Source: a virus
Taxonomy: Duplodnaviria > Caudoviricetes
Virus record (IMG/VR): IMGVR_UViG_3300033069_001639
Coordinates: 3,418-67,417 of that record
Reading direction: 5' to 3' (one strand)
Length of the DNA: 64,000 bases
Shown here: in pieces, positions 3,927-56,245 of the stretch
Layout: every line of letters starts with the position of its first letter
Position numbering within the stretch: position 1 is the first letter of the stretch
Made by a program: the position numbers and the translations under genes
The notes under the pieces: generated by a model
Databases searched by the model: none
What the model saw: the letters and a program-made list of their open reading frames with translations, nothing else
What the model was told of the DNA's origin: nothing

Positions 3927-4258
3927 GCATCGCCGAAAACATCGCCGCCCGTCGCGGCGCCGAAGAAATGATCGCATTCATCGGTGAACAATCGCAGCGC
4001 TATTGGGAATGCCTGATCGAGTTGGCGAAGGGGAAACTTCCGCCGAAGCCCGAACCGGTCGATCCCTGCCCAGCGATGAGCGACTTCGAAGCCGCTCGTT
4101 TCGAAAACACGCTCGTTCCCTATGGCAAATTCGATGGCAAATTCGTCGGTGATGTCGATCCCAGCTATTTGCTATTTCTGACCGAAGGTGACGAATGGTC
4201 GAAGAAGCTGCGCCGCTACGTCAAGTCAGATCGGTTTCAGCGGAGGCAATCGGAATGA
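3923..4258 (+). CDS. Hypothetical protein with DUF3820-like motif
   Basis: VPYGKFDGKFVGDVDPSYLLFL resembles the PFGKxxG...PxxYLxW motif; ATGA overlap. Confidence 0.6.
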   Translation: MSIAENIAARRGAEEMIAFIGEQSQRYWECLIELAKGKLPPKPEPVDPCPAMSDFEAARFENTLVPYGKFDGKFVGDVDPSYLLFLTEGDEWSKKLRRYVKSDRFQRRQSE

Positions 4259-4650
4259 TCCACACCGTCGAAATCAAACACGCCGGCCACACATTCCTTA
4301 CGCGCTTTCGCGCAGATCAGATCCCCGATGTCCGCGTGCGGCTCGCGATTCAAGCCGATCGGGAGTGGTTCCCCTTCGACAAGGCCTTTCAAGCAAACGA
4401 GCAACTATCACGAATCGAGAAGGAACACGGTATGGACATGGAAGCAATCAAACTGCGCTGGACTCGGCAGGGGTTCTGCCCGCTGATCCTGGGCAATGCC
4501 GAGGAATGGATCGTCACGCTCAACCACAGCTTTCCGACGCACGAACTGCATCGACCGCCGACGGGGCGCGGGGAAACGCTGCGGGATGCCTTTGCCGTGG
4601 CGGAAGCGGATCTGCACGAGATGTTGAGCAAGCGGAAGGCGAAGGTCTAA
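4255..4650 (+). CDS. Hypothetical protein
   Basis: ATGA overlap with upstream gene. Confidence 0.6.
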   Translation: MIHTVEIKHAGHTFLTRFRADQIPDVRVRLAIQADREWFPFDKAFQANEQLSRIEKEHGMDMEAIKLRWTRQGFCPLILGNAEEWIVTLNHSFPTHELHRPPTGRGETLRDAFAVAEADLHEMLSKRKAKV

Positions 4651-4680
4651 ACGGAATCTATTGCGTCAAGGATGTGCCCG

Positions 4681-4998
4681 ATGCCTGCCAAACCCAAACT
4701 CGAAATCCGCCGCCTGCAGCAAGTCGTGATGAATGGCTCTGCGCGATATTTCCTGAACGAAGTCAACGGTCTGCTGCTCGACGGCTGGTTTGTCGTGCCG
4801 GGCTCCTACTATCACACCCGCGTTCTCGGCATCGCCGACGAGAAGACGCCGAAGCATTTCATTGACGAAGACGGCTACACCTGGCGGGATCACTATTTCA
4901 TCGCCTTGGAGCGAGAAGAACACGTCGATCCAGATGCGGCGAAGAAGGTTATTCAGGCTATTGAGCAGCGCGAGCTTGCAGAGTTTGGGGTGGCGTGA
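4681..4998 (+). CDS. Hypothetical protein
   Basis: ORF coupled to the DUF5131 gene. Confidence 0.55.
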   Translation: MPAKPKLEIRRLQQVVMNGSARYFLNEVNGLLLDGWFVVPGSYYHTRVLGIADEKTPKHFIDEDGYTWRDHYFIALEREEHVDPDAAKKVIQAIEQRELAEFGVA

Positions 4999-6062
4999 TG
5001 GGAACAATCTCAAAAATCGAATGGCTCCGCGGTGGTCATACGGCATCGCCTTGGTACGGCTGCCAGCACGCAAAGTTGCCCGACGGCAGTGATCATCCCG
5101 GCTGCCCGAACTGCTACGCCGAAGCGCTGAGCAAGCGAAATCCCGGCACGCTGGGTGAGTGGGGGGCCGACGGTCGACGCGTTGTCAGCAAGAGCTTTCA
5201 CGACGCCTGCAGGAAGTGGAATGCGGCGGCATTGAAGGCCAATAAACGGTCGTGCGTGTTCCCGTCGCTGTGTGATCCTTTCGAGGATTGGACAGGACCG
5301 ATTCACAACAACGATGGCGACGAACTTTGCATCTGCGATGGCTGCGGCAAGCGCGTGTTCTTCACCGAGGACTGCGAGGGCGAAGCGGCTTTGTGCCAAA
5401 AGCTCCCGCGGTTGCTCACGATGAACGATCTGCGCCGCGATCTATTCGCGACGATCGACAAGTGCCCGATGCTGGATTTCCTGCTGCTGACGAAGCGGCC
5501 GCAGAACATTCGGAAGATGTGGCCTGCGTATCAAAACAATGGCCGCGGAGATCGTGACTTTACGCCAAACGTGGACGGCGTGATGTACGGCGGGCTTCGA
5601 ATGGACAACGTCTGGCTGCTCTACTCTGCCAGCGATCAAAAGTCACTTGATGCCGGCCTGCCATCCCTTCTGCATTGTCGCGATCTTGTTCCGGTGATCG
5701 GTTTGAGCCTGGAGCCGCTGACCGGGCCAATCGATTTATCGCATTACCTTCCGCCGACGCCGCGCAGCGAATGCCCTCCAGAGATGTTGCCGCACAATCT
5801 CGATTGGGTGATCGTTGGCGGTGAATCAGGCCACGGCGCTCGACCGTGCAAGGCCAAGTGGATTGCCGACATCGTTAATCAGTGCCGGGCCGCATCGGTT
5901 CCGGTGTTTGTAAAGCAGCTCGGTAGTGAGCCGGACTTCGTGGGCTTCTCCGAATCGTTTCGTTGGCCGCTTAAAGACAAGAAGGGGGGCGATTGCGAGG
6001 AGTGGCCGAAGTCGCTGCGCGTGAGGGAATTTCCTCGCATGGAAAGCGAGGCGGCGGCATGA
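4995..6062 (+). CDS. DUF5131 (phage Gp37/Gp68, radical-SAM-like) protein
   Basis: SKIEW, GC...GCPNCYAE, LLLTKRPQN, DWVIVGGESG and VPVFVKQLG motifs. Confidence 0.9.
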   Translation: MMGTISKIEWLRGGHTASPWYGCQHAKLPDGSDHPGCPNCYAEALSKRNPGTLGEWGADGRRVVSKSFHDACRKWNAAALKANKRSCVFPSLCDPFEDWTGPIHNNDGDELCICDGCGKRVFFTEDCEGEAALCQKLPRLLTMNDLRRDLFATIDKCPMLDFLLLTKRPQNIRKMWPAYQNNGRGDRDFTPNVDGVMYGGLRMDNVWLLYSASDQKSLDAGLPSLLHCRDLVPVIGLSLEPLTGPIDLSHYLPPTPRSECPPEMLPHNLDWVIVGGESGHGARPCKAKWIADIVNQCRAASVPVFVKQLGSEPDFVGFSESFRWPLKDKKGGDCEEWPKSLRVREFPRMESEAAA

Positions 6063-13067: not shown

Positions 13068-13427
13068 ATGAACGTCATCGAAATCGTAAAGGCCCTTCGC
13101 CAATACCGAATCCGCTTCGGCACTGAAGCGTTTATGCACGCCGACGTCGCTCGCGTACTGAACCAACTTGATCAGCTGCATGTCTGCGAGGAGCCACTAT
13201 CGGCAGCCGACCGAATCGACTTCTATTTGCCGGACACTCACTGCGGCATCGAATGCAAGGTTGCTGGCGGGCCATCGGAAGTTCTCGCACAACTGCTCCG
13301 TTACGCGAACTCACCGAGTATCGAGCATCTCATTTTGGTGACATCGCGACGCACTCATCAGTTCGAACAAACCACTTTGGCAGGAAAGCCATTTGCGGTC
13401 GTCTACTGTGGAGCAGGTGGAATCTAA
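13068..13427 (+). CDS. PD-(D/E)XK-like nuclease
   Basis: RIDF...GIECK...QLLRYA; coupled to the SNF2 helicase. Confidence 0.65.
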   Translation: MNVIEIVKALRQYRIRFGTEAFMHADVARVLNQLDQLHVCEEPLSAADRIDFYLPDTHCGIECKVAGGPSEVLAQLLRYANSPSIEHLILVTSRRTHQFEQTTLAGKPFAVVYCGAGGI

Positions 13428-15112
13428 TGCACGTTGCACCCGAAAAAACGTATGGTCGTCTTTGGCTCGATGGAGACGATTGGCACTTGCAGTGCGAGCC
13501 TCACGTTGCGTTGATGGCCAAGCGGATCTTCCAGCGGATTGACAAGGGATCCGCGGGGACTCTCAAGATTAAACATAGCGATTCGGTGGCCCGCGATCTC
13601 GAATGGTTCGTGCAGCGGTACCCATTGCAGATCGAGAGCCTGGCTGATTTGACCGCGGCGTCGCGACGTCATCAAGACAAAATCCTCACACTTAATCAGA
13701 TCCTCGGCGGTGAATACAAGCCACGGACGTTCAAGCTGGCGTTGCCGCCGCGTGACTATCAATCGGTAGCTGCCGAGCTTTATACCGCTCAGGGCTACTT
13801 GCTGCTCGGCGACGACGTTGGAATTGGCAAGACGGTATCGGCGATTGCCGCACTACGCGACTCGCGCACGTTGCCGGCGTGCATTGTGACACTCGCTCAC
13901 TTGCCGCGGCAGTGGGAGAAAGAAATCAATCGTTTCGCGCCGGACCTGTTCACGCACGTGCTGAAGAAGGGAACGCCGTACGAGCTGCCAATGCGCAAAG
14001 GCCGCCGGCCGGACGTGCTGATTACCAACTATCACAAACTCACTGGCTGGGCAGACGTGCTGGCGTCTTACTGCAAGAGCGTCACATACGATGAAATTCA
14101 AGAGCTTCGGCATAGCGGAACGAACCGATACACCGCCGCTAAACACATTTCATGGTCCGCCGATTTTTGCCTCGGTCTCTCCGCAACGCCGATCTACAAC
14201 TATGGCGGCGAGATTTTCAACGTGCTGAATGCCATCAAGCCGGGCCTTCTCGGTACAGCGGATGAATTCTACCGCGAGTGGTGCACGTCGCTGGGCAATG
14301 GCAAATACAAGATCAGGGAGCCGCACGCGTTCGGTTCGCACCTGCGCGAGCAGCACATCATGCTTCGGCGAACCCGCAGCGACGTCGGTCGCGAATTGCC
14401 GCCGATGCAAAAGATCGTTCAGGAAGTCGACTCAGACACCAAGGCCTTCGAAGCGATCGAAGATGCTGCGAGCGAACTCGCGAGAATCATTCTTTCCCGC
14501 GGTGAAGACTCAAACTTTGCGAAGATGCAAGCCGCTGAAGAATTCAACTCGTTGATGCGGCAAACGACCGGCATTGCCAAGGCCCCCCACGTCGCTGCGT
14601 TTGTGAAGATGCTTATCGAAAGCGGCGAATCAGTCGTGTTGTTTGGCTGGCATCGGGCCGTTTATGAAATCTGGAAAGCGCGCCTCGCGGAATTCGAGCC
14701 AGCGATCTATACAGGCAGCGAGTCAGTCACGCAGAAACAGGCCGCAGCCGAGCGATTCACGAGCGGCCAAACGAAGTTGCTGATCTTATCCCTTCGCAGT
14801 GGTGCTGGTCTCGATGGCCTGCAGCACTGCTGCCGAACCACGGTGCACGGCGAACTTGATTGGAGCCCAGGCGTTCACGAGCAAAACATTGGCCGAGTCT
14901 TTCGAGATGGCCAAAAGGATCCGGTGATCTCGTACTTTTTGCTGGCCGATTCTGGGAGTGATCCAATCATCGCCGAAACGCTTGGCCTCAAGCGCGAACA
15001 GATCGAAGGCATCCGCGACGCTGGAAAGGCGGCTGACCTTGAGCGACTGAGTCGCGACGAGGCCGGTATCAAAAAGCTGGCTGAAGCCTATTTAGCGAGG
15101 AAGAGAACGTAA
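13427..15112 (+). CDS. SNF2-family helicase
   Basis: DDVGIGKT, YDEIQ, LSATP, GLDGLQ, EQNIGRVFRDGQ. Confidence 0.92.
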   Translation: MHVAPEKTYGRLWLDGDDWHLQCEPHVALMAKRIFQRIDKGSAGTLKIKHSDSVARDLEWFVQRYPLQIESLADLTAASRRHQDKILTLNQILGGEYKPRTFKLALPPRDYQSVAAELYTAQGYLLLGDDVGIGKTVSAIAALRDSRTLPACIVTLAHLPRQWEKEINRFAPDLFTHVLKKGTPYELPMRKGRRPDVLITNYHKLTGWADVLASYCKSVTYDEIQELRHSGTNRYTAAKHISWSADFCLGLSATPIYNYGGEIFNVLNAIKPGLLGTADEFYREWCTSLGNGKYKIREPHAFGSHLREQHIMLRRTRSDVGRELPPMQKIVQEVDSDTKAFEAIEDAASELARIILSRGEDSNFAKMQAAEEFNSLMRQTTGIAKAPHVAAFVKMLIESGESVVLFGWHRAVYEIWKARLAEFEPAIYTGSESVTQKQAAAERFTSGQTKLLILSLRSGAGLDGLQHCCRTTVHGELDWSPGVHEQNIGRVFRDGQKDPVISYFLLADSGSDPIIAETLGLKREQIEGIRDAGKAADLERLSRDEAGIKKLAEAYLARKRT

Positions 15113-15158: not shown

Positions 15159-15317
15159 ATGAAACGGAAGTCCTACGAGCGGAGGCTGCGCGCCGAAACC
15201 GTTCGCATCAACGGCTGCCCGGTGATTTTCTATAAATGCCCCAAGAGACGGAAATGGTGTTGGCGCGCGATCGGGGGGCGGGTGCAGCTGAAGAAGGGAA
15301 AGCCAAGATGCCCGTAA
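15159..15317 (+). CDS. Small basic hypothetical protein (52 aa)
   Basis: Hand-translated MKRKSYERRLRAETVRINGCPVIFYKC...; SD GGAG. Confidence 0.4.
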   Translation: MKRKSYERRLRAETVRINGCPVIFYKCPKRRKWCWRAIGGRVQLKKGKPRCP

Positions 15318-15421
15318 CGTTTATCAACCCGTACTATTGGCAAAACAATGGTAACTATCCATTTGACTCATCACGACTTAGGACGATTGCTGGAAATTTT
15401 GGCATTTTCTTTCCAATACGC

Positions 15422-15449
15422 TTGACACATCACCGAATACAGCTATAGT
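15422..15449 (+). promoter_or_regulatory. Sigma70-like promoter inside the IS left end
   Basis: TTGACA-16 nt-TATAGT. Confidence 0.5.
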
Positions 15450-15501
15450 TATACGCATGACGCATCACTTGATGCGGCACAACAACACAAGGGTAACGAC
15501 A

Positions 15502-15825
15502 ATGACCACCACTCAGAAGATTTACATTTACAACGAAAATTGCACGATGAAGGGCCGCATCTGCCACGGAAATTCCCACTACGAAGACTTGGCAGACTTT
15601 GGCGACGTGAGCCTGTTTGGTGAAGGAACCGATGAAGAACTGATCGCTCAGGCTCTGGATGAATTGGCTAACCGCTACGATTTCCGATCTGGCGGTGCTC
15701 GCGACAGTTTCCGCTGGCGCTGTGCTCGCGAAGTGCTTCGCTATCTTGACGGGCCGAAGGTCGAATACAGCGAAGAGGAACGGGTCTACCTGCCGGTCGT
15801 TGAAGAAGTCGAAGAGGCTGAATAA
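15502..15825 (+). CDS. IS passenger hypothetical protein 1
   Basis: Acidic ORF inside the TIRs. Confidence 0.6.
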   Translation: MTTTQKIYIYNENCTMKGRICHGNSHYEDLADFGDVSLFGEGTDEELIAQALDELANRYDFRSGGARDSFRWRCAREVLRYLDGPKVEYSEEERVYLPVVEEVEEAE

Positions 15826-16079
15826 TGGAAATCCTGCTTTGGAACTGGCCTGCCGGCGACGAATCGGCATGGCAGGCTTTGGTTGGCGGCGTGATGACAC
15901 ACGCTCAATATCAAACCACGCTTGCTGCGGTGCAGGCTGATCAAGAGCGGCAAGGGCGAACCGTTCGCCGCGTGAGCATGACGGTTGCCGCGATGCGAGC
16001 GGCCCTAACAAAACACAATCTGCAAAACACGCCAGACGGTCGCGCTGCGGCCTTGGCTCTTGAGGGGACAAATGCCTGA
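15825..16079 (+). CDS. IS passenger hypothetical protein 2
   Basis: Coupled to passenger 1 and to the transposase. Confidence 0.6.
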   Translation: MEILLWNWPAGDESAWQALVGGVMTHAQYQTTLAAVQADQERQGRTVRRVSMTVAAMRAALTKHNLQNTPDGRAAALALEGTNA

Positions 16080-17040
16080 CACTCCGCAAACCTTGATGGA
16101 AGCAGTCCGCTATTACGCCGATCCGAAGGTCTGCTTTGAAACCATGCTGGCCGTGAAGTGGCCAGACGGAAAGATCGTCTGCCCGAAGTGCGGAGGCGAT
16201 GCAGTTGGCGTCGTCGCATCGCGGTCCCTGCTGCAATGCAAGGCGAAGGGGTGCCGCAAGCAATTCAGCGTGAAGGTCGGCACGATCTTCGAAGATAGCC
16301 CTCTCGGCCTGGACAAGTGGTTTGTCGCAGTCTGGTGCATTGCCAACGCAAAGAACGGAATCAGCAGTCTGGAACTGTCGCGAGCGCTGGGAGTTCGCCA
16401 GCCCACTGCGTGGTTCATGCTCCACCGGATTCGGCTCGCGATGCGAACTAAGACCTTCCGCAAGCTCAGCGGAACAGTCGAGGGCGACGAAACATTCATC
16501 GGCGGCAAGGCGAAGAATATGCACAAGAGCCGCCGTGAGAAGCTGATTCGCGGTCGCGGTGCTGTGAACAAGGCAATCATCCAAGGGCTGCTGGAGCGTG
16601 GCGACAGCGATAGTGTGAGCGAGTTCCGCGGCTGGGTGGTTCGCGATACATCGGCAGAGGAAATGCTGCCAAACATCACCCAGAACGTTTACCCAGAATC
16701 CACGATCTACACCGACGCCGCGCCCGCGTACAGCGAGTTGGGCGCTGGCTACTTCCACAAGTGGGTTGACCACATCGGCGAGTACGTTCGCGGGCGTGTT
16801 CACGTCAACGGCATTGAGAACTTTTGGTCGCTGCTCAAGCGAATGCTGCGAGGCACTTACGTTGCCGTCGCCAAGTTCCACCTTGAGCGGTATTTGGACG
16901 AACAAGCGTTTCGGTTCAATCTTCGCGATTTGAACGACGCAGGCCGCTTCCGGCGCGTGCTGGCTGCGGTAGTTGGCAAGAGGCTCACTTACCGGCTGCT
17001 CACCGCCCAGGGTGACGCCGGCTTTATGGGGATTCGCTAA
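16072..17040 (+). CDS. tnp: IS1595-family DDE transposase
   Basis: N-terminal CPKC...CKAKGC zinc ribbon, VEGDETFIGG, YTD, HVNGIENFWSLLKR, YLDEQAFRFN. Confidence 0.95.
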   Translation: MPDTPQTLMEAVRYYADPKVCFETMLAVKWPDGKIVCPKCGGDAVGVVASRSLLQCKAKGCRKQFSVKVGTIFEDSPLGLDKWFVAVWCIANAKNGISSLELSRALGVRQPTAWFMLHRIRLAMRTKTFRKLSGTVEGDETFIGGKAKNMHKSRREKLIRGRGAVNKAIIQGLLERGDSDSVSEFRGWVVRDTSAEEMLPNITQNVYPESTIYTDAAPAYSELGAGYFHKWVDHIGEYVRGRVHVNGIENFWSLLKRMLRGTYVAVAKFHLERYLDEQAFRFNLRDLNDAGRFRRVLAAVVGKRLTYRLLTAQGDAGFMGIR

Positions 17041-17186
17041 TGGTTCGGAAGCCTGAAGGTGTGAACGAAACGGAATCGCTACTTCGCAAACTGGTTCAAG
17101 TCCCCAAGCATGAGCTTGCTGCTGAAGTGGAGAAAGACAAGCGAAAGCCCAAAAAACGGGCAGCCAAGCGGAAGAAAAAATCATAA
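17040..17186 (+). CDS. Small Lys-rich IS accessory ORF (48 aa)
   Basis: MVRKPEG...LLRKLVQVPKHE...KKKS*; coupled to the transposase stop. Confidence 0.55.
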   Translation: MVRKPEGVNETESLLRKLVQVPKHELAAEVEKDKRKPKKRAAKRKKKS

Positions 17187-17541
17187 GTCACCTTGATGAG
17201 TCAAGTGGATAGTTACCAAAACAATTGGGGAGTGTTTGTTGTCATTCGCAGCAGCGACGGCAAAGTTGTAGCCCGATTCGATAACGAACATGACGCCTAC
17301 TCAAAGTGCCTGGAGCTCGCACGATCCGATCGAATTGAGTGGCAGACAAAGCCCGTCACAGGTTTGACAGAACCCCCGCCTTCGGTATGATGCGAGAAGA
17401 CTTTACGGGGTCGGGGGTCAATTCCGCCCTGTATCAAAATAGCGCCTGGTGCACGGGCGCACGTACACATCCAAGTTGTGGCGTGCGCTTGTCTCTTGAG
17501 TGAATATCAGGCCACGCCGCGGCTCTTTCCGCGGAGTTCTT

Positions 17542-17934
17542 ATGTCGGCCTCCTATCTGCAGATCCTCGTCGCCCTCACGACCTACGCCGTTTCACATCC
17601 AGCCGCTTTCGCCCAACTCTGGCAAGCGCTCGTGAATCTCTGGCAGGCCGGTCAACAGGCCGCTGCGACCATCGTCGAGCAGTTCAACGATGCCACGGCC
17701 GCCTTGCCGCGCGACGCTGGCGAGTTGATCGAGGTCACGCCGGAAGTGCTCGCCGCCGAGGGGAACTTCGAAAAGGCTCTGGCGAATGTCCCCACCCCCC
17801 GCGCCAGCACTCGCGGCATCTTCGCCCAGGGCAACGGCAACTTCCGCAAGATCCTCGGCCAGCTGATGAGCTCGCCGCTCGGCCAGGTCCTGCTGCAACA
17901 GCTGCTCGCGAAGATCGGCAGCGCGGCCTCGTAA
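17542..17934 (+). CDS. Helical, possibly membrane-associated hypothetical protein
   Basis: SD GGAG; hydrophobic or amphipathic N- and C-terminal helices. Confidence 0.65.
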   Translation: MSASYLQILVALTTYAVSHPAAFAQLWQALVNLWQAGQQAAATIVEQFNDATAALPRDAGELIEVTPEVLAAEGNFEKALANVPTPRASTRGIFAQGNGNFRKILGQLMSSPLGQVLLQQLLAKIGSAAS

Positions 17935-17983
17935 CGGCAAGGGCTTGTGTCAGGGGTTCCCTCGCAACGTCAAGGGTTCGGCG

Positions 17984-18889
17984 ATGGCTAATCACGGCTT
18001 GTTCATCGGGATCAACTACACCGGGAGCGGCAACGCGCTGCGTGGTTGCATCAATGACGCGCGGAACTGGCTCGCCTTCTTCGGCCCGTTCTGTGCCAGC
18101 GTCAAGGAACTGCTCGAGCAATCCGCCACCAAGGCCGGCATGGTTGTCGCGATCAGCGAGGTCCTCGGCAAGCTCAAGGCCGATGATACGGCCATCGTCA
18201 CGTTTTCGGGGCATGGCACCTACATTCCGGATCGGTCCGGCGACGAAGACGACCGGCGGGATGAAGCTCTCTGCCCGTTTGACCTCAACATGAACTTGCT
18301 GCTGGATGACGAGCTCCGCGACCTGCTGGCCAATCGTGCGGCCGGTTCGCGCGTGTTGATCATCACGGACTGCTGCCATTCCGGCACGATGACGAGAGGC
18401 ATCGGCGCGGATTCCCCGGAACTGCTCCCATCGCCGCGTTACGTCGACTTCGCTTCGCTGACGGGCTGCATGTGTCCCAATGATGTCGATCGGATCACGC
18501 GCAAGGCTCGCGAGTTCCGCAAGCGACGACGGCATGCAAAGGCTGCAGAGCCAGCCATGAACATTGTTCACCTCGCCGGCTGCCTGGACACCGAGGTCAG
18601 CTATGACGCCACGATCGGCGGTCTGCCCTGCGGAGCGTTCACGTATTACGCGCTGGCCGCGCTGAAGGCCCGGCAGACCAAGGGGCTGACCTTCGGTGAA
18701 TGGCGCGATGCCGTGACGCCGGTTCGGCTGCCCAGCAAATACTACCCGCAGACGCCGGTTTTTAACGGGCCGATGTCGCTGGTTGTGCCGGGATTTGAGC
18801 CGGTGATCTCGCCGCCGGTTCCTGCCCAGGGCGAAGTCGTTCGATATGTGCTGGGCGGCAAAACGTTCGAAGTGAGGGAGGTGAAGTGA
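17984..18889 (+). CDS. Metacaspase/orthocaspase (peptidase C14)
   Basis: IGINY...LRGCINDA, FSGHG (His), DCCHSG (Cys), GAFTYY, QTP. Confidence 0.93.
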   Translation: MANHGLFIGINYTGSGNALRGCINDARNWLAFFGPFCASVKELLEQSATKAGMVVAISEVLGKLKADDTAIVTFSGHGTYIPDRSGDEDDRRDEALCPFDLNMNLLLDDELRDLLANRAAGSRVLIITDCCHSGTMTRGIGADSPELLPSPRYVDFASLTGCMCPNDVDRITRKAREFRKRRRHAKAAEPAMNIVHLAGCLDTEVSYDATIGGLPCGAFTYYALAALKARQTKGLTFGEWRDAVTPVRLPSKYYPQTPVFNGPMSLVVPGFEPVISPPVPAQGEVVRYVLGGKTFEVREVK

Positions 18890-19416
18890 TGGACGCTGAC
18901 GTTGTTGGCGGATTTCCAATTGCCGACCCGAATTGCAAGGGCTGCGGCAAACCACTGCTGATTGAAAACGCCTGGATGACCGATGGTTGTCCATGCAATA
19001 CGCCACTCGGTGTAAACAGCATGAACGAAACTCGCTGGCGGTTGCTTCAGCAGCTTCAGCAGCAACAGGCGCACGAACTGGAGTCCATCAGGACAGAACT
19101 GGCGCACATGCGAGATACCGATGCCGTTCAGGATCGACAGGCACTGCTTGAGAATGTAGCAGCGCTGTCGCGAGAACTTGAAACACTCAAGGCTGCCGGG
19201 GAGTCGGCACTTGCCTTTTTGAAGCGAGCTGCATTCAACGAACATCGCATCGTTTCGTCGGGCGACTTGACGCCGATGCAAATCACAGAAGCGCAGGCCC
19301 GCAAGTTGTTCTATGTCGAACCGGGCGGCGGTCTTGGCTGGGCGCTGGTGCCGTGGGAGTTAACGACTCCCAAGGATCGCAAGCGCGAAGAAGAGTATTT
19401 CGCGAACAAAAAGTAG
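18886..19416 (+). CDS. Hypothetical protein (Cys motif plus coiled coil)
   Basis: CKGC...CPC; GTGA overlap. Confidence 0.6.
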   Translation: MMDADVVGGFPIADPNCKGCGKPLLIENAWMTDGCPCNTPLGVNSMNETRWRLLQQLQQQQAHELESIRTELAHMRDTDAVQDRQALLENVAALSRELETLKAAGESALAFLKRAAFNEHRIVSSGDLTPMQITEAQARKLFYVEPGGGLGWALVPWELTTPKDRKREEEYFANKK

Positions 19417-19431: not shown

Positions 19432-21033
19432 ATGTACTGGATTATCGCAATGGTCGCACTCGCACAAATCGACGCCGCACAACCAGCGGTCGCGGTGCGC
19501 AGTACGCCAGTGCTGGCCAAAGTTGCCGACCCATACGACGCTGCGGCCTGGGCGCTCGAAGATGCCTTGGCCCTGCGTGCCAACAATCAATCCGCCGCCG
19601 GCTGCCTCTACATCTGGATTGGGCCCGACGAGTCGCCGGCCATTGCCAATATCAATTCGCTCGCGGTCAATTCCGCCCTCTCGCATTCGTCAACGATTCA
19701 GCTTCCCGACCTCACCGCCGGCGGCCGTCTGATTCGCTGGGATCTCGCGAAGCTCGCGCCGAAGCGCACCGACTTCCTGCGGCTGGTTGGCGTCATCAAC
19801 GATCTGTCGATCGGCGAACCGTTCTGGCATGTTGATCTGAAGGCCCTCGGGCTGCCCGCCGCGAAGTGCCCGCCATTCGTCTGGATGGATGGGCGAACCT
19901 ACTCCCTGACGTTCTCTGTGCCTGCGCCAGCGACGGCTGAAGCGTATCAACTTCTACAGCACGAAACCGGGCTGAAAACGCCGCTGCTGCGTGCGGATTA
20001 CTTTCTGCGGCGGATCTCGTCGACGATCCAATCGGGCCGGTATTACCACGTCCGCGGCTTTATCACTTACGACGAACACGGGAAAGAGAAGCGGTTGACC
20101 GAAACTGAGATTTTCAAGCAATTCGGCAACGATGTCGGCTTGTCGCGGAAGGTTGAGGGCGACGATCGAGTGGGCATTGTGATCTCGGGAGTGACCGGCC
20201 AGGCCCGCGCGGTGGAATTCGGCCAGGGTGCAATCGGCGGCTGGCGGATTACCTACGATCGCTTCTCAGACAACGAGAAGATCACTGCCCATCCGCTGTA
20301 CAACCTGCTGTCGGTGGTTGAGAAGTCAGACGGCCGCGAAACGATCTTCGAAATGCCGAACGGGCTGCTGGCGTACATTCTGACCAACGGCAAGGGTGAG
20401 TTGGTCGATGAAGCTCCGAATAAGCTGGTAACGGATCATCGCACGCCGGTTCCACATCCCGCGCAGTTGTTTCCGCCGCTGTCGTGCGTGCGCTGCCACG
20501 GGCCGGCAGGTGGAGTGCAAAGGACGCCGAACGATGTTTCACGACTCCTTAAGACGCCAACTCAACTGGACGCTTTCGCCGATTTCGGGGGCACTGGTTT
20601 TTCGGGAGTCGACATTGACCGACTTGCCGGCCTTTACGGCGGCGACTTCGAACGCCGTTCTCGCGACGCCCGCAACCGTTACGCCGATGCCGTCTTCACA
20701 GCGACGCGCGGACTTACGGCGACGCAAGCGGCTGCTGGATGGGCTGCTCAATACGAAGGCTACTGGCAAACGCCGGTAAACGCCGATCGGCAATTGCTCA
20801 ATCTCGGCTGGCGTGCTCGATCTCCGCAGGCCGCGAACAAAGCCCTTGAAACGCTGCTCGCGAAACAGGAAACCGATCTGCTTGTGTTCGGGCAGAAAGC
20901 GACGCGCGAGGATCCGCTCATTGTCGCCCCGCGGCTGGGCATTCCGATCCGGTCGCAGGACTTGGAGCGCGTGCAGGCCGAGCAGTTCCGCCGAGCTTAT
21001 TTGCATCGCGGGGAATTGGGGGTGGCACCGTGA
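19432..21033 (+). CDS. Secreted protein with c-type heme motif
   Basis: Signal peptide MYWIIAMVALAQ; GRETIFEMPNGL..Y.L.NGKG...SCVRCH. Confidence 0.7.
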   Translation: MYWIIAMVALAQIDAAQPAVAVRSTPVLAKVADPYDAAAWALEDALALRANNQSAAGCLYIWIGPDESPAIANINSLAVNSALSHSSTIQLPDLTAGGRLIRWDLAKLAPKRTDFLRLVGVINDLSIGEPFWHVDLKALGLPAAKCPPFVWMDGRTYSLTFSVPAPATAEAYQLLQHETGLKTPLLRADYFLRRISSTIQSGRYYHVRGFITYDEHGKEKRLTETEIFKQFGNDVGLSRKVEGDDRVGIVISGVTGQARAVEFGQGAIGGWRITYDRFSDNEKITAHPLYNLLSVVEKSDGRETIFEMPNGLLAYILTNGKGELVDEAPNKLVTDHRTPVPHPAQLFPPLSCVRCHGPAGGVQRTPNDVSRLLKTPTQLDAFADFGGTGFSGVDIDRLAGLYGGDFERRSRDARNRYADAVFTATRGLTATQAAAGWAAQYEGYWQTPVNADRQLLNLGWRARSPQAANKALETLLAKQETDLLVFGQKATREDPLIVAPRLGIPIRSQDLERVQAEQFRRAYLHRGELGVAP

Positions 21034-21287
21034 ACCCCTATGAATCGCCGACGCACTGCGAAGAACTTCGTCCCGTGGATCTGACCGCGTTATGGGTGTT
21101 GCTGGTAGTAGCGTTTTGGCCGGCCTTGTTCCTTGTGGTGTTTCCGGTCGCATTGATTGAGCAAATTCGCAAAAAGGACGATTTAGGCCAGTTTGTCTGG
21201 GGAATGTTCTGGGCAGCAGTCCTTGTCTTTGACGTCGCAATCGGATGGTTCCTGCTGATTCAATTCGTATCGAAGATTTTTATTTGA
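21030..21287 (+). CDS. Two-TM membrane protein with NPYESP N-terminus
   Basis: Two hydrophobic helices. Confidence 0.65.
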   Translation: MNPYESPTHCEELRPVDLTALWVLLVVAFWPALFLVVFPVALIEQIRKKDDLGQFVWGMFWAAVLVFDVAIGWFLLIQFVSKIFI

Positions 21288-21295
21288 GGAAACCA

Positions 21296-22069
21296 ATGAG
21301 TCCGTACACTTTCGCCGCAATCGTAATTCTCGTCTTTGAAATGCTACTCGCATCGCAAGCCAGCGCCTGTGGCCGTTGCGGCATCTTCGGCCGCGGCTGC
21401 CGATTCGCCCACGCCCCCGTCGTTCACCACGCCGCGCCGGCCATCGTGAAAGCCCCCGACACGATCCAGAACTTCGTGTTCAACAACATTTCGCCGCCGG
21501 GTGATCTCGCTCCCCGCGGCGCCACGGTCTACGGCCTGTCCCGCGCCCTCGAATACAACGCACCCAATTCCGCTCTGTACCTCGATAACGCCCGCCGGGC
21601 ACTTGAATTCGCTGGCGATACAACGGTAAGCGCTCGCACGATCGACACACTGACCTTAGACGCCGCAGCGATTGACGCCCGCGGCCGAGCGGTAGAAGCG
21701 GCTTTCCGGTCACTGGCTCCCGATACGGCGACGGCAACGCGCAGCACGACAACGAAGGTGACGATCCGCAACGGCATTCCGGTGATCGACGAACTGCCCA
21801 CCCTGCCTGCCCTGCCTGCCCAAGACGATCCGCCACCAGTGCCGCGTGACCTGCCATTGCGCCCGGTTGACAACGTTACCTGTATGCGATGCCACGGCAA
21901 GGAAGGTGTCGCGGCCAGTGAATTCTTGCTCGATGGCCCGTTGACCTTGGAGCAGTTCGCCAAAGCAAAGGACGCCATTGAAGCCGGACGGATGCCCCCA
22001 AAGACAAACTTGACGCCAGCCGAAAAACTTAGCCTTGTCGCGAGGTTCGGAAAGCTGGTTCGCCAATAA
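21296..22069 (+). CDS. Secreted protein with C-terminal cytochrome c-like domain
   Basis: Signal peptide; CMRCH...GRMPP (putative axial Met). Confidence 0.72.
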   Translation: MSPYTFAAIVILVFEMLLASQASACGRCGIFGRGCRFAHAPVVHHAAPAIVKAPDTIQNFVFNNISPPGDLAPRGATVYGLSRALEYNAPNSALYLDNARRALEFAGDTTVSARTIDTLTLDAAAIDARGRAVEAAFRSLAPDTATATRSTTTKVTIRNGIPVIDELPTLPALPAQDDPPPVPRDLPLRPVDNVTCMRCHGKEGVAASEFLLDGPLTLEQFAKAKDAIEAGRMPPKTNLTPAEKLSLVARFGKLVRQ

Positions 22070-22124: not shown

Positions 22125-22538
22125 ATGAACATCGTACGTCAAACCGAAAGTGGTCTTTGCCTTGCTGCATGCGTGGCGATGGTCGCGAACTGCTCGCTCG
22201 AGGAAGTCGTCGAAAAGACGCGAATCCTCAAGTCGCAGGACGGCGTACGGTTCTTGCCCGACAACGAAGCCATCAAGTTTCTCGCCTCACGAATGTTGTG
22301 CTACGGGCTGCGTTTGGCTCCCGGCAGCGAAGTGAACGAAGACACGCCCGATTTTACGGTAACGGTCACAACCGATTGCCCTGCGATCCTGGGCGTCCTT
22401 AGCGAGAACTTCCCCGGCTTCAATCACGCCGTCGTTTGGGACAACCAGCGGCGGAAGATTCTCGACCCATTGCATGACGAGCCGCAACCGCTGTCTCGCT
22501 ATACGGTCGTCGAGTGGGTTCCGATTTCACACGTTTAA
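22125..22538 (+). CDS. Peptidase C39-like (papain-fold) protein
   Basis: RQ...CLAACVAM, HAVVWD, ILDP give Q/C/H/D. Confidence 0.65.
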   Translation: MNIVRQTESGLCLAACVAMVANCSLEEVVEKTRILKSQDGVRFLPDNEAIKFLASRMLCYGLRLAPGSEVNEDTPDFTVTVTTDCPAILGVLSENFPGFNHAVVWDNQRRKILDPLHDEPQPLSRYTVVEWVPISHV

Positions 22539-22559: not shown

Positions 22560-22814
22560 ATGAAGAGTTTGCTTTTGGCCCTGTTGGCCATCGTGGCGAT
22601 GTGCGTCGCCGTTTCGTCCGCTGAAGCCCACGGCGGCGGTGTGTTTGTCCGCGATGCGTTCGGCAATACGGTGTTTGTGCCGAATCAAGGTGTGATCATT
22701 TCGCGCGGCTTCGGTGGTCCGGTTGTTGTCCAGCGCGGGCCGGTCGTAGTTCGCGGCCACGTCAACCAGTTCAACCAGAACGGTGGCCGGAATCGCATCG
22801 GCTTCCGTCGTTAA
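22560..22814 (+). CDS. Small secreted Gly/Val/Arg-rich protein
   Basis: Signal peptide ending in AEA. Confidence 0.65.
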   Translation: MKSLLLALLAIVAMCVAVSSAEAHGGGVFVRDAFGNTVFVPNQGVIISRGFGGPVVVQRGPVVVRGHVNQFNQNGGRNRIGFRR

Positions 22815-22918: not shown

Positions 22919-23203
22919 ATGTCCCCAGAAGCCTGGATCGGTTTAGCCGCGATGATCCTTACTGCCTTGGGGGTGCTGCTTGGCGCTGCCTGGTGGATGT
23001 CGGCGCTGTACTCGCAGGTCAGCAATATCCAAACGAACACGGAAACGACGAACACCAAAATCGACACGCTCACCGAAAAGATGGACGGCGAGTTACATGA
23101 CGTGCGAACCGTCCAGCGCGAGCAAGGCAAAGACATTGCGGAACTTCGCGGGCGAGTCGGCAAGGTCGAGGGAATTTTAGAAGCGGAGTTTGGAGCGGAG
23201 TAA
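22919..23203 (+). CDS. Single-TM coiled-coil protein (holin/hemolysin XhlA-like architecture)
   Basis: N-terminal TM, then heptad repeats ending RVGKVE. Confidence 0.55.
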   Translation: MSPEAWIGLAAMILTALGVLLGAAWWMSALYSQVSNIQTNTETTNTKIDTLTEKMDGELHDVRTVQREQGKDIAELRGRVGKVEGILEAEFGAE

Positions 23204-34082: not shown

Positions 34083-36578
34083 ATGACAACCGATTCCCGC
34101 GGCATCCCCGCGTCATTCATCCAAGCGGAAGCTCGTGATCCGGCGGAAGCATGGCCCGGCGCTCCGCCAAACTTCGGCCAACCTCTTGTCCCGCACATCG
34201 CAACCGTCTCCGGCATGACCGGCGGTGCAGGCCGCGCCTACTCTTGGGCCGACGAAGCGCTGCGCGACAGCCGCGAAAATGCCGACAAGATGCTGACGGA
34301 CTGCGGCATTACGGAATGCCTCGAAGCCCGCCTGCGATCGACCGCGCTTCTCAATTGGCACATCGCGCCGGAAAACGAAAACTCGTCCGACGAGAAGGCC
34401 CTCGCCGACGAGATGACGAAGATCATCACGTGCACGCCACACTTCGCGAAGTTCCGCTGGGCAATGGGGCTGGCGCGCTGGTACGGCCGCTACGCCGTTG
34501 TGCCGCAATATGGAATCGACTGGGTCAACGGAAAGCAGCGAACCGTTGTCACGCGCTGGGAGCCGCGCCACGGCGACAAGCTCGTCTTCCGTTACGACGA
34601 CGGCAGCCACCGAACCCAAGCCGACCAGGTAGGCATTCGCATCGGCGGCGCTCATACGTGGATCGACACCGACAAAAAAGATTACCGCGGCAACGATCTG
34701 CGGCAAGTCGAAGCGACAAATCACGGCCTCGTTTACTGGCTGACCGATAAACAACGCCGGCTGATCGTCGTCAATAAGCACATCATCGAGGACGGGCCCT
34801 TCGAGGATCCATTGCGGGCCGGTGCCATTCACGGCATCGGGATCCGCGATCGCATCTATTGGACTTGGTACGGGATGATCGAATGTCTGGCCGACATCCT
34901 TTGCTACCTCGAACGATCCGCCTTCGGTATTGAGATCTGGAAGTACCCCGCCGGCAACAAGCAGGCCCAGACCCGCGCGGAAGAGGCCGCAAAGAAGATC
35001 ACGAGCAACGGGCGAACTGTGCTGATCGTCCCCGTGTTTCAGGGAGAGAACAGCGAGCAATTCGGCGTCCAGCACATCGAGCCAGGCCTCGGCGGCGTCG
35101 AGCAAGCGATGACCATTGTAAGGGAATACTTTGGCCACAAAATCAAACGCTACATCCTGGGCCAAACCCTCACGAGCGAAGCCGATGCGACCGGCTTGGG
35201 TTCCGGTGTTGCCGATGCCCACCTCGCGACCTTCGCTGACATCATTCGCTGGGATGCGCTGAACGATCAGGAAACGCTGACCTCCGACAAACTGCGATGG
35301 ATGCAGCTTTGGAACTTCCCAACGTCGCGCGGCATCAAGCTGCGGATGGTGATCGACACCGATTCGCCTGACGCCGAGAAGAAAATGAAGGGCTACGAAT
35401 CGGCCTGGGGAATGGGCGCGCGGATCAAGGAAGAGGATGTTCTCAGCGTGATCGGGGCCTCAGTGCCAAAGAACACGGACAAGGTTTTGCTCAATCCCGC
35501 GGTCTCTGGTCAGCAGGGCGGCGGCTTCGGCAGTTTTGGCGGCGTGAACCTTGGTCAGGCTCAAGGCCAGCGGCCTCCGCTTCCCGATTCGCAGCAGGAG
35601 GCAATCAAGCGGCTGGCAGACGTCGAGAAGTTCATCAACGGCGTTTCGCTCGGAAAGATCATGGCGGATCGGCACACCTACACGCTAAGCCTCGATGAAG
35701 CCGCGAAACACACCGCGACGCCGAGCGAAGCGCAGGCCAAGGCCGGCAACTATCGCAAGGGCAAAACGAACCTGCACGGCCTCACGATCTCGATCGAGAA
35801 CGCCAAGGGGACGCGGCGGAAGCCGGACTGGCCGGAACTGTCGGCGCATTATGGGTACCTGAATCGAACCGAAGGCGGGGACGGCGAGCATATCGATGTT
35901 TTCATTGGCCCGAACCCCGATAGTGAATTGGTGTTTGTCATCGATCAGGTGAAAGAGTCCGGCCGGTTTGACGAGCACAAAATCGTGATGGGCACTACCT
36001 CACGACAGGAAGCATTGGACCTGTATCTCGCCAACTACCCGGCTGGCTGGAAAGTTGGGCCAGTGACGGCGATGACGATTGACCAATTCAAGGCGTGGTT
36101 GGCCGAAGGGGACACCTCGAAGCCGCTGGCGCCGCAAGTGTCAAAGTATACGTTCAAGGAAAGCGAGCACCCGCGCGACGATGCCGGGAAGTTCACGGAG
36201 GGGCCAGCAGTAGCGAGCAAAGCCGACAGGGCATCATCGGAGCCATCGAGCAACAAGGCCCCGGCAAAGGCCACCGGTGAAGTTGCGGGCAGCTTTACCG
36301 AACTGAAGGAGCGGCACCCCGAGCTTGCGAAGTTTGCCGACAACCCAGAACCATTGCCGAAAGTTCGCGGCGGCAAGATTGCATATCTAACGGCGCATCA
36401 GCACGCGATTTATCTGGACTTGGCCAAGGCCCGCAGCGCGGGCAACGTGACACCGGAAGAATGGAACGCGGGGCTTGCGGCAATCCGCGCGATGGATGTT
36501 CCCAGCAATCAGGTTGCGCCACCGACGGTCAAGAGTCGGCTGTTTAGCGCTATCGGCCGGGCAAAAGGTAAACGCTGA
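34083..36578 (+). CDS. DUF935 (Mu gp29-like) portal fused to an InPase-like domain
   Basis: ILGQTLTSEA portal motif; AGNYRKG...ISIEN.KG...HYGY..RTEG.DGEHIDVF...FDEHK; ESEHPRDDAGKF. Confidence 0.8.
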   Translation: MTTDSRGIPASFIQAEARDPAEAWPGAPPNFGQPLVPHIATVSGMTGGAGRAYSWADEALRDSRENADKMLTDCGITECLEARLRSTALLNWHIAPENENSSDEKALADEMTKIITCTPHFAKFRWAMGLARWYGRYAVVPQYGIDWVNGKQRTVVTRWEPRHGDKLVFRYDDGSHRTQADQVGIRIGGAHTWIDTDKKDYRGNDLRQVEATNHGLVYWLTDKQRRLIVVNKHIIEDGPFEDPLRAGAIHGIGIRDRIYWTWYGMIECLADILCYLERSAFGIEIWKYPAGNKQAQTRAEEAAKKITSNGRTVLIVPVFQGENSEQFGVQHIEPGLGGVEQAMTIVREYFGHKIKRYILGQTLTSEADATGLGSGVADAHLATFADIIRWDALNDQETLTSDKLRWMQLWNFPTSRGIKLRMVIDTDSPDAEKKMKGYESAWGMGARIKEEDVLSVIGASVPKNTDKVLLNPAVSGQQGGGFGSFGGVNLGQAQGQRPPLPDSQQEAIKRLADVEKFINGVSLGKIMADRHTYTLSLDEAAKHTATPSEAQAKAGNYRKGKTNLHGLTISIENAKGTRRKPDWPELSAHYGYLNRTEGGDGEHIDVFIGPNPDSELVFVIDQVKESGRFDEHKIVMGTTSRQEALDLYLANYPAGWKVGPVTAMTIDQFKAWLAEGDTSKPLAPQVSKYTFKESEHPRDDAGKFTEGPAVASKADRASSEPSSNKAPAKATGEVAGSFTELKERHPELAKFADNPEPLPKVRGGKIAYLTAHQHAIYLDLAKARSAGNVTPEEWNAGLAAIRAMDVPSNQVAPPTVKSRLFSAIGRAKGKR

Positions 36579-54245: not shown

Positions 54246-55808
54246 TCACTCCTCGAAGTCTTTCCGCCGAAGAGTGGCCTTTTTGCGACTACTGACCGTG
54301 GGATTACCTTCCAGGTGGTGATTCAACGGTCCGTAGTTAAAAAAAAAGACTGTGCCCCCGACCGGGAACCATTTCCGCCGGTCGACCTTGCTCTGCTCAA
54401 ACGCGAGCTCGACACGGTCGATGACCTGCGCCAGCGCGGCGCGAACGGTCAGCAAATCGCCGTGCTGCAGAACATGGTCGAGTTCCCAGATCTGTGCCGC
54501 AATCGCCTCTGGCGATCGTCCACTACGTTCAACCTTGGCAGCTTTTACCTGCTCGGCAATCGCTTCTCGCTTCTCCTTCAGCTTTCGCATGGCCTCTTGA
54601 ACGGCTGGAACTAGATCAGGCTCGACATCGAGAAGCCGCTCTGCAGCTGAAGCGATTTTGCGATCGATTTCGGCCAGTTGCTTGGCGACGTCGGCTTGAA
54701 CCGTTTTCCGCCGGCCGGGCCCGCGCAAATGGGCGATGTGTTCGGCGAGCGCCTTTCGCGAGCCCATCAGGATCAGATCGCGGATCTTGTTGACGACGAG
54801 CTTCATCGCCAGCTTGTTCAGAATCGAATTATTGGTGCACCCCTGGCCGGTGTAGTTGGTTTGGCAGATGTAGCGGTCATAGCGCTTCTCATAGAGCATC
54901 TTCGCACCGCACTTCTTACAGACCAGCAGACTCGACAGCGGGCCGCCTGGCTTCTTGCCGCTGCGGCTGGAGTGATTGTTCGTGCGGCGCCGGTTCACTC
55001 GCTGCACGCGTTCCCAGAGGGCTTCGTCGATGATGGCCGGATGCGTCCCCGCGTTTGTAAATTCCTTGTCTGTGATCCTGCAGAACTTGGCGCGCGAATA
55101 CCGGCCGATGACCTGATTGCCGCGATAGGATTCGTTCTCCAGCATCTTGCGGACCTGCCGCGCATACCAACAACAGCCGCGCGGCGATGGAATGTTCTCG
55201 GCATTTAACACCGCGGCAATCGACGGCATGCCCATCCCTTCGGCGCGCATTTCGAAGATCCGCCGAACCGTTGCAACTTCGGTCGCATCGCCTAGCACAA
55301 GAGTTCCACTCTGCTTTTTGTAGCCATAGGGCGAGATCGTCAGCCACTTTCGCGCGACCACCGCGGCACGACGGCCGCGGACTGAATCATGCGCGAGCGA
55401 TTTGACGTATTCCGCTTTGCCGTGCTGATTAACCGAAGCTGTGAGCCAACCGCCGAGCGAGTTCCAATCGATCGGGCCTTCCTTGACTGTTTCGAGTGTT
55501 ACACCAGCGACGCGGAGCCGATGCCAATAGTAGTTGGCTTCCATCGGGTCGAACCGCGAGAAGCGGGACTGGTCCCAGCACAGCACAGCTTTGAACAGTT
55601 CCTTCTCGGCATCAGTGATGAGATTTTGGAATTCAAGGCGCTGCTTGCTCTTCCAGCCACTGATCCCCTCATCGATGTACCATTTCACGATGCGGTAGCC
55701 GCGCTTCGCAGCATAGGCGGCTACCTCGGTTCGCTGCTCCTCGATCGATTTGTCCTGCTTGTCCGAAGACATCCGCAGATAAGCGGCAACGGGAATCGTC
55801 GCTTTCAT
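54246..55808 (-). CDS. int: Large serine recombinase (integrase)
   Basis: AYLRMSSDKQ..SI..Q, YIDEGISG, DQSRFSR, PYGY, LVCKKCG zinc ribbon, coiled coil. Confidence 0.95.
   Translation of the reverse strand: MKATIPVAAYLRMSSDKQDKSIEEQRTEVAAYAAKRGYRIVKWYIDEGISGWKSKQRLEFQNLITDAEKELFKAVLCWDQSRFSRFDPMEANYYWHRLRVAGVTLETVKEGPIDWNSLGGWLTASVNQHGKAEYVKSLAHDSVRGRRAAVVARKWLTISPYGYKKQSGTLVLGDATEVATVRRIFEMRAEGMGMPSIAAVLNAENIPSPRGCCWYARQVRKMLENESYRGNQVIGRYSRAKFCRITDKEFTNAGTHPAIIDEALWERVQRVNRRRTNNHSSRSGKKPGGPLSSLLVCKKCGAKMLYEKRYDRYICQTNYTGQGCTNNSILNKLAMKLVVNKIRDLILMGSRKALAEHIAHLRGPGRRKTVQADVAKQLAEIDRKIASAAERLLDVEPDLVPAVQEAMRKLKEKREAIAEQVKAAKVERSGRSPEAIAAQIWELDHVLQHGDLLTVRAALAQVIDRVELAFEQSKVDRRKWFPVGGTVFFFNYGPLNHHLEGNPTVSSRKKATLRRKDFEE
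54288..54337. other. Candidate attP site
   Basis: 50-bp imperfect inverted repeat: ACTACTGACCGT...ACGGTCCGTAGT (11/12), inner arms 6/9, central dinucleotide CA at 54312-54313. Confidence 0.6.
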
Positions 55809-56245
55809 GCTGCCTCCCCGCGGTAGATGCCGAGCTTCAGATTGAGCTTCGGCCGCCTGGCCAGCCATTCGAGACGCTTCTTCACGTCGTCGAACATCTT
55901 GCTGCGCGCTTTCCGCGTTGGCTGATATTCCTTGCCGATCCAGTCGACCAGCGATTCGCCGGGGGCAAACAGCCCCATGCGCAAAGTCGGCAGGTAATAG
56001 TTCGGCGTCGCCTCAAGATAGAACTTGCGAGGTTCGTCAACGAAGAGATCGATGCCGTAGATCAAAATCGAGCCACGACGAAGCAGCGGCCGCTCGAGGA
56101 AATCCTTGGGATCGATCGGCGCTTGCGAGTAGTCGCGAACTTCCGTGACTTGAAATGACCGGCGGACCCATTCCAGCGGGATGCCCATCTTGTTGCAGAC
56201 CGGATACCAATCCGAAAACACTTCTCCAACCACAGGACGCTTCAT
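55805..56245 (-). CDS. Hypothetical protein with WYL-like segment, coupled to integrase
   Basis: RPLLRRGSILIYGIDL..DEPRKFYL; ATGA overlap with int. Confidence 0.55.
   Translation of the reverse strand: MKRPVVGEVFSDWYPVCNKMGIPLEWVRRSFQVTEVRDYSQAPIDPKDFLERPLLRRGSILIYGIDLFVDEPRKFYLEATPNYYLPTLRMGLFAPGESLVDWIGKEYQPTRKARSKMFDDVKKRLEWLARRPKLNLKLGIYRGEAA

Follow-up and report, generated by a model that had tools for sequence, protein, structure and literature searches.

A metacaspase-type protease of an uncultured tailed phage is found upstream of a widespread pair of secreted CxxCH proteins

A 64,000-nucleotide stretch of the virus record IMGVR_UViG_3300033069_001639 (hereafter the window) encodes a caspase-family protease on its plus strand. 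Comparison with related loci strongly suggests that this caspase fills an interchangeable protease slot, which heads a mobile phage cassette with a constant secreted cargo consisting of two CxxCH proteins (C and E) and often a small third protein (G). The cassette looks like a multi-gene module new to phages. Across life from bacteria to humans, proteases of the caspase family hold central roles in immunity and cell death, and we know of no function shown for any phage-encoded member. The gene now has a defined genetic context, namely a private partner (protein A) and a slot filled by three unrelated protease classes, and the vague annotation of a viral metacaspase that may act in cell death can be replaced by testable hypotheses on substrates, compartment and timing. 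An earlier interpretation made from the letters of the window (the sequence-only reading) was right in seeing a genuine, intact phage caspase and a conserved gene pair, but its membrane-type upstream protein was not supported and the known systems it named as analogies failed. It missed the more widely conserved partner, which is the downstream secreted CxxCH pair C/E. The genes on which the argument depends are the following.

17542-17934, plus strand: protein A, a 130-residue, all-helical ORFan and caspase-specific partner, directly upstream of the caspase gene
17984-18889, plus strand: stand-alone metacaspase-like Peptidase_C14 protease of 301 residues, without a signal peptide
19432-21033, plus strand: protein C, a secreted protein of 533 residues with a signal peptide and an invariant CxxCH (Cys352, Cys355 and His356)
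21245-22069, plus strand: protein E, a secreted cytochrome-c-like protein of 274 residues with a signal peptide, one C-terminal CxxCH and a weak Cytochrome_CBB3 match
22560-22814, plus strand: protein G, a small secreted Gly-rich protein of 84 residues after E, with an N-terminal hydrophobic signal segment

The protease slot and its caspase

We defined the slot as the gene position that immediately precedes C on its strand, allowing for a single small open reading frame (ORF) in between. Its recognised occupants, with the loci designated by L numbers, were as follows.

Window, L050, L130, L131 and L134: Peptidase_C14
L210/211, L212 (E 2.4e-27, with a PG_binding_1 domain), L216 and L222: Peptidase_M10
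L233: astacin-like protease
L223 (E 2e-51), L226, L228 and L236: Peptidase_S8

A protease of one of three catalytic classes was present just upstream of C in 14 of the 26 evaluable distinct loci. Tailed phages usually carry very few protease genes besides the prohead protease, so three classes in one position are hard to ascribe to chance, a judgement made from this general knowledge and not from a computed background rate. Protein C extends well beyond the caspase version of the cassette. A profile scan recovered C homologues with 24-42% identity at 27 further IMG/VR loci (22 distinct), and neither the caspase nor A occurred within 8 kb of C in any of these 27. A three-gene unit of A, caspase and C was considered and rejected, because C is widespread without the other two. 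The C homologues are approximately 500-690 residues long and each retains one CxxCH; most have a clear Sec signal peptide, and one has a Tat-like RRSFL motif. Downstream of C, an E homologue with a signal peptide and one CxxCH was found in 22 of 27 distinct loci. Homologues of G follow E in L050, L131, L216, L222 and L223, and in many other loci E is followed by a similar-sized small protein with an N-terminal hydrophobic segment. Furthermore, the N-terminal and central domains of C are fused behind a PSCyt1 cytochrome c domain in Planctomycetota genomes, a fusion that supports C and E acting together. The sequence comparisons point to C, E and often G as a conserved phage module, apparently comprising a new family of phage-encoded secreted haem-type proteins.

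A conserved protein of 161-173 residues occupies the slot in L215 (7290-7775), L219 (7267-7788), L221 (7226-7714) and L224 (7233-7733). It had no Pfam, NCBIfam or PDB sequence match, and PDB sequence searches with the slot proteins of L215 and L217 were empty. It may represent yet another protease, so far unrecognised, or a different kind of partner.

The caspase ORF of the window spans 17945-18889 on the plus strand, with the likely ATG at 17984. Its product matched Pfam Peptidase_C14 (PF00656) over residues 6-232 (E 1.4e-20, 74.4 bits against a cutoff of 21.4), and no further Pfam domain was detected in it. The FSGHG motif starts at residue 74 (with His77) and DCCHSG at residue 129 (with Cys131), which confirms the stand-alone C14 domain described in the sequence-only reading. 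The catalytic dyad, also called intact there, is indeed so, with His77 and Cys131 invariant in an alignment of 31 relatives with identity down to 43%; Cys22, Asp25, Ser75 and Asp129 are likewise invariant in this alignment. Judged by motif spacing, the latter four residues probably correspond to Cys92, Asp95, Ser156 and Asp211 of TbMCA2, which have been proposed to line the pocket for a basic P1 residue, and metacaspases cleave after Arg or Lys (PMC4357240). The S1-pocket residues would place the phage caspase in the metacaspase (C14B) group, with a predicted specificity for Arg or Lys.

The closest solved structure was that of GSU0716 from Geobacter sulfurreducens (3bij, E 5e-23), followed by the type I metacaspases MCA1 (7qp0, E 9e-22), Yca1 (4f6o) and TbMCA2 (4afr), all of which belong to the same fold family, PF00656. 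To our knowledge there is no biochemistry for 3bij. The phage protein begins directly with the first strand of the fold (its residue 5 aligns with residue 100 of 7qp0). It shares with metacaspases the SGHG and D-x-CHSG motifs, the GCINDA motif with the pocket Cys and Asp, and an acidic block after the catalytic His that aligns with the one in MCA1. However, it has neither the N-terminal prodomain of type I metacaspases nor the long p20-p10 linker of type II, and is thus a minimal form like 3bij. Unlike GSU0716 and the type I metacaspases, it is phage-encoded, paired with a novel 130-residue protein and located ahead of secreted CxxCH proteins. Its N-terminus is not hydrophobic, and the caspase is therefore expected to be cytoplasmic. 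The ratio of non-synonymous to synonymous substitution rates (dN/dS) of the caspase gene, calculated against its closest relative L050, was 0.18. This value, together with the invariant dyad and S1-pocket residues, argues that the gene is not a decaying capture. From its sequence, the protein appears to be a genuine, intact and apparently active metacaspase-type cysteine protease under purifying selection.

Identity to the window caspase was 83% in L050, 64% in L130, 63% in L131 and 38% in L134. Beyond these loci, a caspase search of IMG/VR returned only relatives with approximately 25-40% identity, many of them on giant-virus contigs, and A or C was found on none. The single match among 50,697 GenBank phage records had 26% identity and came from an uncultured 485-kb phage. 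Unrelated viral settings also harbour caspase homologues, with neither A nor C beside them; L132 and 48 IMG/VR loci are examples. In L132, a low-GC phage-like contig with genes for a SIS-domain protein, a sigma factor and a phosphoesterase-like protein, the caspase (4129-5013) is 40% identical to that of the window and has a Thr-rich N-terminal extension. Given that neither A nor C accompanies it, this caspase subfamily has entered unrelated phages.

Partner protein A, the secreted proteins and the operon

A homologue of A lies immediately upstream of the caspase gene in all four close relatives fetched (L050, L130, L131 and L134), which upheld the proposed pairing of the two genes. It is missing from approximately 200 other caspase-bearing loci, L132 included, and was found only with the caspase version of the cassette. 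The family is small, with nine representatives at 50% identity among 1.84 billion proteins, and a profile search collected 12 proteins in all, mostly on short contigs. Against L050, dN/dS of A was 0.43. The sequence-only reading had described a helical membrane-type ORF at this position. The ORF exists and is predicted to be all-helical, but its membrane character was not supported, as no segment of transmembrane grade was found in A (the top 19-residue Kyte-Doolittle score was 1.28). Structure prediction gave an AlphaFold2 (AF2) model with a predicted local distance difference test (pLDDT) score of 74, comprising only helices and a disordered loop at residues 87-98, and it linked A to no known fold or family: the best structural matches (Z ≤4.2) were uninformative for a helical protein, language-model scores from a protein atlas were below 0.9, and no Pfam, PHROG, PADLOC or NCBIfam match was obtained. 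The residue after the nearly invariant Pro86 is Arg (Pro86-Arg87) in nine of the 12 family members and Asp or Glu in the other three. The best-conserved part of A is the C-terminal helical segment with invariant Gly114 and Leu118. As a conjecture, the caspase might cleave A, with the Pro-Arg of the disordered loop as the site.

Several M10 and S8 proteases are likewise immediately preceded by small helical-looking ORFs of approximately 100-150 residues, placed as A is before the caspase (L211:6839-7144, L216:6932-7237, L222:6793-7179, L223:3268-3639 and L226:6049-6492). These small ORFs had no detectable similarity to A or to each other, except for the related pair in L216 and L222.

Protein C is as constrained as the caspase, with a dN/dS of 0.18 against L050. 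Its AF2 model is confident (pLDDT 84), except that the CxxCH domain and a C-terminal helical domain are joined by a linker of low confidence (residues 379-390). The family matched nothing in Pfam or PHROG, and Foldseek found no match for the model in PDB or BFVD. An exhaustive structural search with residues ~205-409 placed cytochrome c'-beta/P460 proteins on top (Z 5.5, 5.4, 4.8 and 3.7). This modelled likeness is weak and may serve as a lead, one that agrees with the CxxCH motif. The remaining genes of the segment are as follows.

18886-19416, plus strand: 176-residue Cys-rich and coiled-coil protein, overlapping the caspase gene by 4 nt at its stop codon
21030-21287, plus strand: protein D, an 85-residue membrane protein (top 19-residue Kyte-Doolittle score 2.65, 30 windows ≥1.6)
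22125-22538, plus strand: protein F, 137 residues, matching PHROGs of unknown function only
22919-23203, plus strand: protein H, 94 residues, spanin- or holin-like, with an N-terminal transmembrane segment and a coiled coil

The Cys-rich protein had a homologue in L050 only and appears to be a lineage-specific filler, and no homologue of D was found in other loci. Protein F had been labelled a C39-like cysteine peptidase in the sequence-only reading; it had no PDB sequence match, and its PHROG matches gave no function. A homologue of F adjoins C in L130. Protein H had weak PHROG matches, Rz-like spanin families among them (E 7e-5 to 9e-3), and is kept in L050 and L131.

Upstream of A, the following elements may mark the start of the operon.

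17364-17391, plus strand: sigma70-like promoter (TTGACA, 16-nt spacer, TATGAT), 11 of 12 consensus positions
17392-17541, plus strand: structured 5' leader with two strong hairpins (minimum free energy -61.8 kcal/mol, z -3.7)
17517-17534, plus strand: GC hairpin with a weak U tract within the leader, specific to the window

Both hexamers of the promoter are identical in L130. From the -35 hexamer to ~17527, the window is near-identical to L130 (9376-9545), whereas the flanking proteins are only 52-64% identical. The leader of A, approximately 135 nt long, is single-copy in the window, and its 21-nt core had no exact match in IMG/VR. An origin as a tRNA fragment or a known RNA was rejected, as there is no tRNA at the site and no Rfam family matched. 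Promoter and two-hairpin leader together could act at the head of the operon as an RNA element for antitermination or regulation. All genes from A up to position 23203 or beyond run in one direction and overlap or are separated by short gaps, which indicates that the caspase belongs to a long operon and is not an autonomous moron. The earlier suggestion that the caspase gene stands at the start of a cassette is plausible in view of the promoter and conserved structured leader that precede 17542.

Possible functions and known systems

The role that we tentatively favour for the caspase, while rating it below an even chance, is an envelope-directed one of the lysis type, in which a protease without a signal peptide reaches its targets after the membrane is breached. 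The cassette, which in this lineage lies where replication genes give way to packaging genes, would be transcribed from its own sigma70-type promoter through the conserved leader. The protease would build up in the cytoplasm and, late in infection and after inner-membrane breach, act on the envelope or on the secreted proteins of the cassette. The protease classes might substitute for one another as endolysin classes do, and A would be a small protein dedicated to restraining the Arg/Lys-directed caspase, most likely as its substrate or cleavable inhibitor. Support for a lysis-type role comes from the endolysin-like swapping of enzyme classes in the slot, one of which (L212) carries a peptidoglycan-binding domain, from the hydrophobic membrane protein D and the spanin-like H nearby, and from the lack of a recognised muralytic enzyme among the ORFs tested. 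A broader proposal, which we regard as doubtful, is that the interchangeable signal-less protease and the constant c-type-haem-like C, E and G form a device for proteolysis-gated release or killing in phages without a recognisable endolysin, with A as its brake or first substrate. If true, a protease-based lysis or killing device would be a new mechanism in phage biology.

Several points weigh against a lysis-type role. The lack of an endolysin or muralytic domain holds for the window ORFs tested, which are part of the total. We know of no metacaspase that attacks peptidoglycan or acts in lysis, nor of a lysis role for haem-type proteins. The promoter is a consensus match only, late expression of the cassette is a proposal, and the terminator-like hairpin of the leader is not conserved in L130. 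In 12 of the 26 loci, a recognisable protease is missing upstream of C. The position of the cassette also varies (after capsid genes in L211 and after DNA polymerase in L225), which would fit an accessory or moron-type cassette as well.

Other explanations of the same arrangement have to be weighed. The caspase, or the M10 or S8 protease in its place, might cleave C, E or G to activate them, so that C would be the true substrate and effector and A only a modulator. In 14 of the 26 loci, C is immediately preceded by a co-directional protease gene whose class is displaced non-orthologously, and C has the low-confidence linker at 379-390. In bacteria, 43 of 50 gasdermins adjoin genes for C14, CHAT or other proteases, a neighbourhood that the slot arrangement mirrors (bioRxiv 10.1101/2021.06.07.447441). 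However, C, E and G carry signal peptides, whereas the caspase and nearly all other slot proteases (eight of the nine non-caspase ones) do not, so that the compartments differ; moreover, C is not a gasdermin, it matched no pore-former, and a conserved basic cleavage motif was not identified in it. We consider this gated activation unlikely. Somewhat less likely still is a prophage exclusion or abortive-infection pair, in which lysogens would produce both proteins from the promoter of the pair, A as a labile antitoxin-like inhibitor and the caspase as a toxin that kills or arrests the cell on superinfection. The phage carries a serine integrase and is apparently temperate, A is immediately preceded by a consensus sigma70 promoter and changes faster than the caspase (dN/dS 0.43 versus 0.18), and the caspase has a domain-level match to the PADLOC 'caspase' model. 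A small upstream gene followed by an enzyme is the typical toxin-antitoxin order, and A and the caspase have this layout. There is also a precedent in the prokaryotic orthocaspase MaOC1, which is encoded beside a toxin-antitoxin module and cleaves its antitoxin (PMC7935541). Nevertheless, no terminator follows the caspase gene and the next gene overlaps its stop codon, which argues against an autonomous moron; the pair has C and E as neighbours in every case, the search for known defence-system partners was negative, and the replacement of the caspase by M10 or S8 enzymes in other loci favours a function in common with C and E.

We see an equally slim chance that the caspase serves host takeover or counter-defence, cutting host proteins in the cytoplasm after Arg or Lys, with C and E as its neighbours only because they share an accessory region. 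This would suit a protease that lacks a signal peptide, is under purifying selection, is placed at the early/late gene boundary and has homologues in unrelated viral contexts without A or C (L132 and the 48 IMG/VR loci), but it leaves the recurrence of three protease classes upstream of C unexplained, and no target is known. The model of the sequence-only reading, in which the caspase cuts A, a pro-toxin or membrane-active precursor, and thereby switches on membrane permeabilisation, is improbable. It could draw on the strict adjacency of A and the caspase in five loci and on the disordered loop, with Pro-Arg in nine of 12 members, ahead of the best-conserved helical stretch (Gly114 and Leu118), given that metacaspases cut after Arg or Lys (PMC4357240). 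Yet A is only moderately amphipathic and has no transmembrane-grade segment (maximum 19-residue Kyte-Doolittle score 1.28), three of 12 members have Asp or Glu in place of the Arg, no known pore-former or toxin was matched, and A is absent from cassettes with M10 or S8 proteases. Least credible of all is a neutral passenger, that is, a recently captured cellular metacaspase gene without a phage role. Among named cellular homologues, the nearest (~40-43% identity) are 'caspase family proteins' of betaproteobacteria, but the low dN/dS and the dyad and pocket residues invariant across 31 relatives speak against a recent capture under no selection, as had been conceivable at the outset, and the caspase is retained with A and C even where caspases have diverged to 38% identity.

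Known systems resemble the cassette in part. The analogies drawn in the sequence-only reading, type III-E TPR-CHAT and caspase-gasdermin systems, fail, with no CHAT or TPR domain, CRISPR context or gasdermin. For type III-E CRISPR TPR-CHAT (Craspase), PF00656 was the only domain in the 301 residues, TPR repeats were not found, and no CRISPR-associated gene was present among the tested neighbours. No neighbour of the caspase matched a Gasdermin model in Pfam or PADLOC, A is all-helical, and C had no gasdermin-like structural match. Gasdermin-protease operons do share with the cassette a conserved non-enzymatic protein beside a protease of varying family, Peptidase_C14 included, and they suggest control by cleavage (bioRxiv 10.1101/2021.06.07.447441). 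They differ in that A is a helical protein of 130 residues and C a secreted CxxCH protein, in that the proteases here have no repeat or NACHT sensor domains, and in the setting of a phage operon instead of a defence island. A type IV Thoeris system was not indicated, as Pfam and PADLOC scans of the flanking genes gave no TIR or Thoeris match, and the caspase scored 29.6 bits against the model of EACC1-associated caspases (NCBIfam NF047832), below its cutoff of 140. With the MaOC1 module (PMC7935541), the common feature is a prokaryotic caspase homologue beside small genes, one product of which MaOC1 cleaves; here, however, A belongs to no known antitoxin family, gene order and phage context differ, and no toxin gene was identified.

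Phage lysis cassettes have in common with the present one a location at the replication/packaging boundary, signal-less enzymes, small membrane proteins nearby, enzyme classes that swap within a slot and, in one displaced protease, a PG_binding_1 domain. Unlike in lysis cassettes, no muralytic domain was recognised among the ORFs tested, peptidoglycan is not a known target of these protease classes, secreted haem-type proteins are the constant partners, and the position differs between phages. Viral metacaspases have been noted descriptively before, in giant-virus genomes from metagenomes, as 'metacaspase-1' in sponge viral populations (bioRxiv 10.64898/2026.01.21.700432) and in phage-related metacaspase operons of Clostridium botulinum (PMC3501461). 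These reports defined no partners or mechanism, whereas partner A and a cassette with interchangeable proteases are defined here.

Phage genome and host

The window covers bases 3418-67417 of a 67,417-bp IMG/VR virus record with a completeness rating of 100%. That the caspase is phage-encoded, as assumed from the start, is well founded in the structural and integration genes that accompany it.

29563: large terminase (TerL)
34083: portal
41254: capsid protein
54246-55868, minus strand: serine integrase

This combination indicates a temperate tailed phage, which is uncultured. A DNA methyltransferase, a DnaC-like loader, an SNF2 helicase and an IS1595 transposase are also encoded in the window. 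TerL matched cultured phages only partially and with less than 42% identity, and the phage is thus very distant from them. The closest relative, L050, is a syntenic 26.5-kb phage contig binned with a Burkholderiaceae metagenome-assembled genome. Host hints conflict, with betaproteobacterial caspase homologues on the one hand and planctomycete domain relatives of protein C on the other, and TerL relatives were found neither in 400 sampled Planctomycetota genomes nor in 400 genomes of the order of the L050 bin.

An IS1595-family element (~15308-17190, with the transposase at 16060-17040 and extra small ORFs) lies between the SNF2 helicase and the caspase operon. The corresponding site is uninterrupted in L130, where the flanks are contiguous, so that the element is an insertion in the window relative to L130. 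The SNF2-family helicase (13253-15112) had strong domain-level PADLOC matches to the DpdE, ZorD and DrmD models and has no counterpart at this position in L050; it may serve replication or recombination, or else be an accessory gene. Finally, the portal (34083-36578) has an extra C-terminal domain at residues ~545-686, which matches PHROGs annotated as minor head protein and DarB-like or polyvalent-protein modules.

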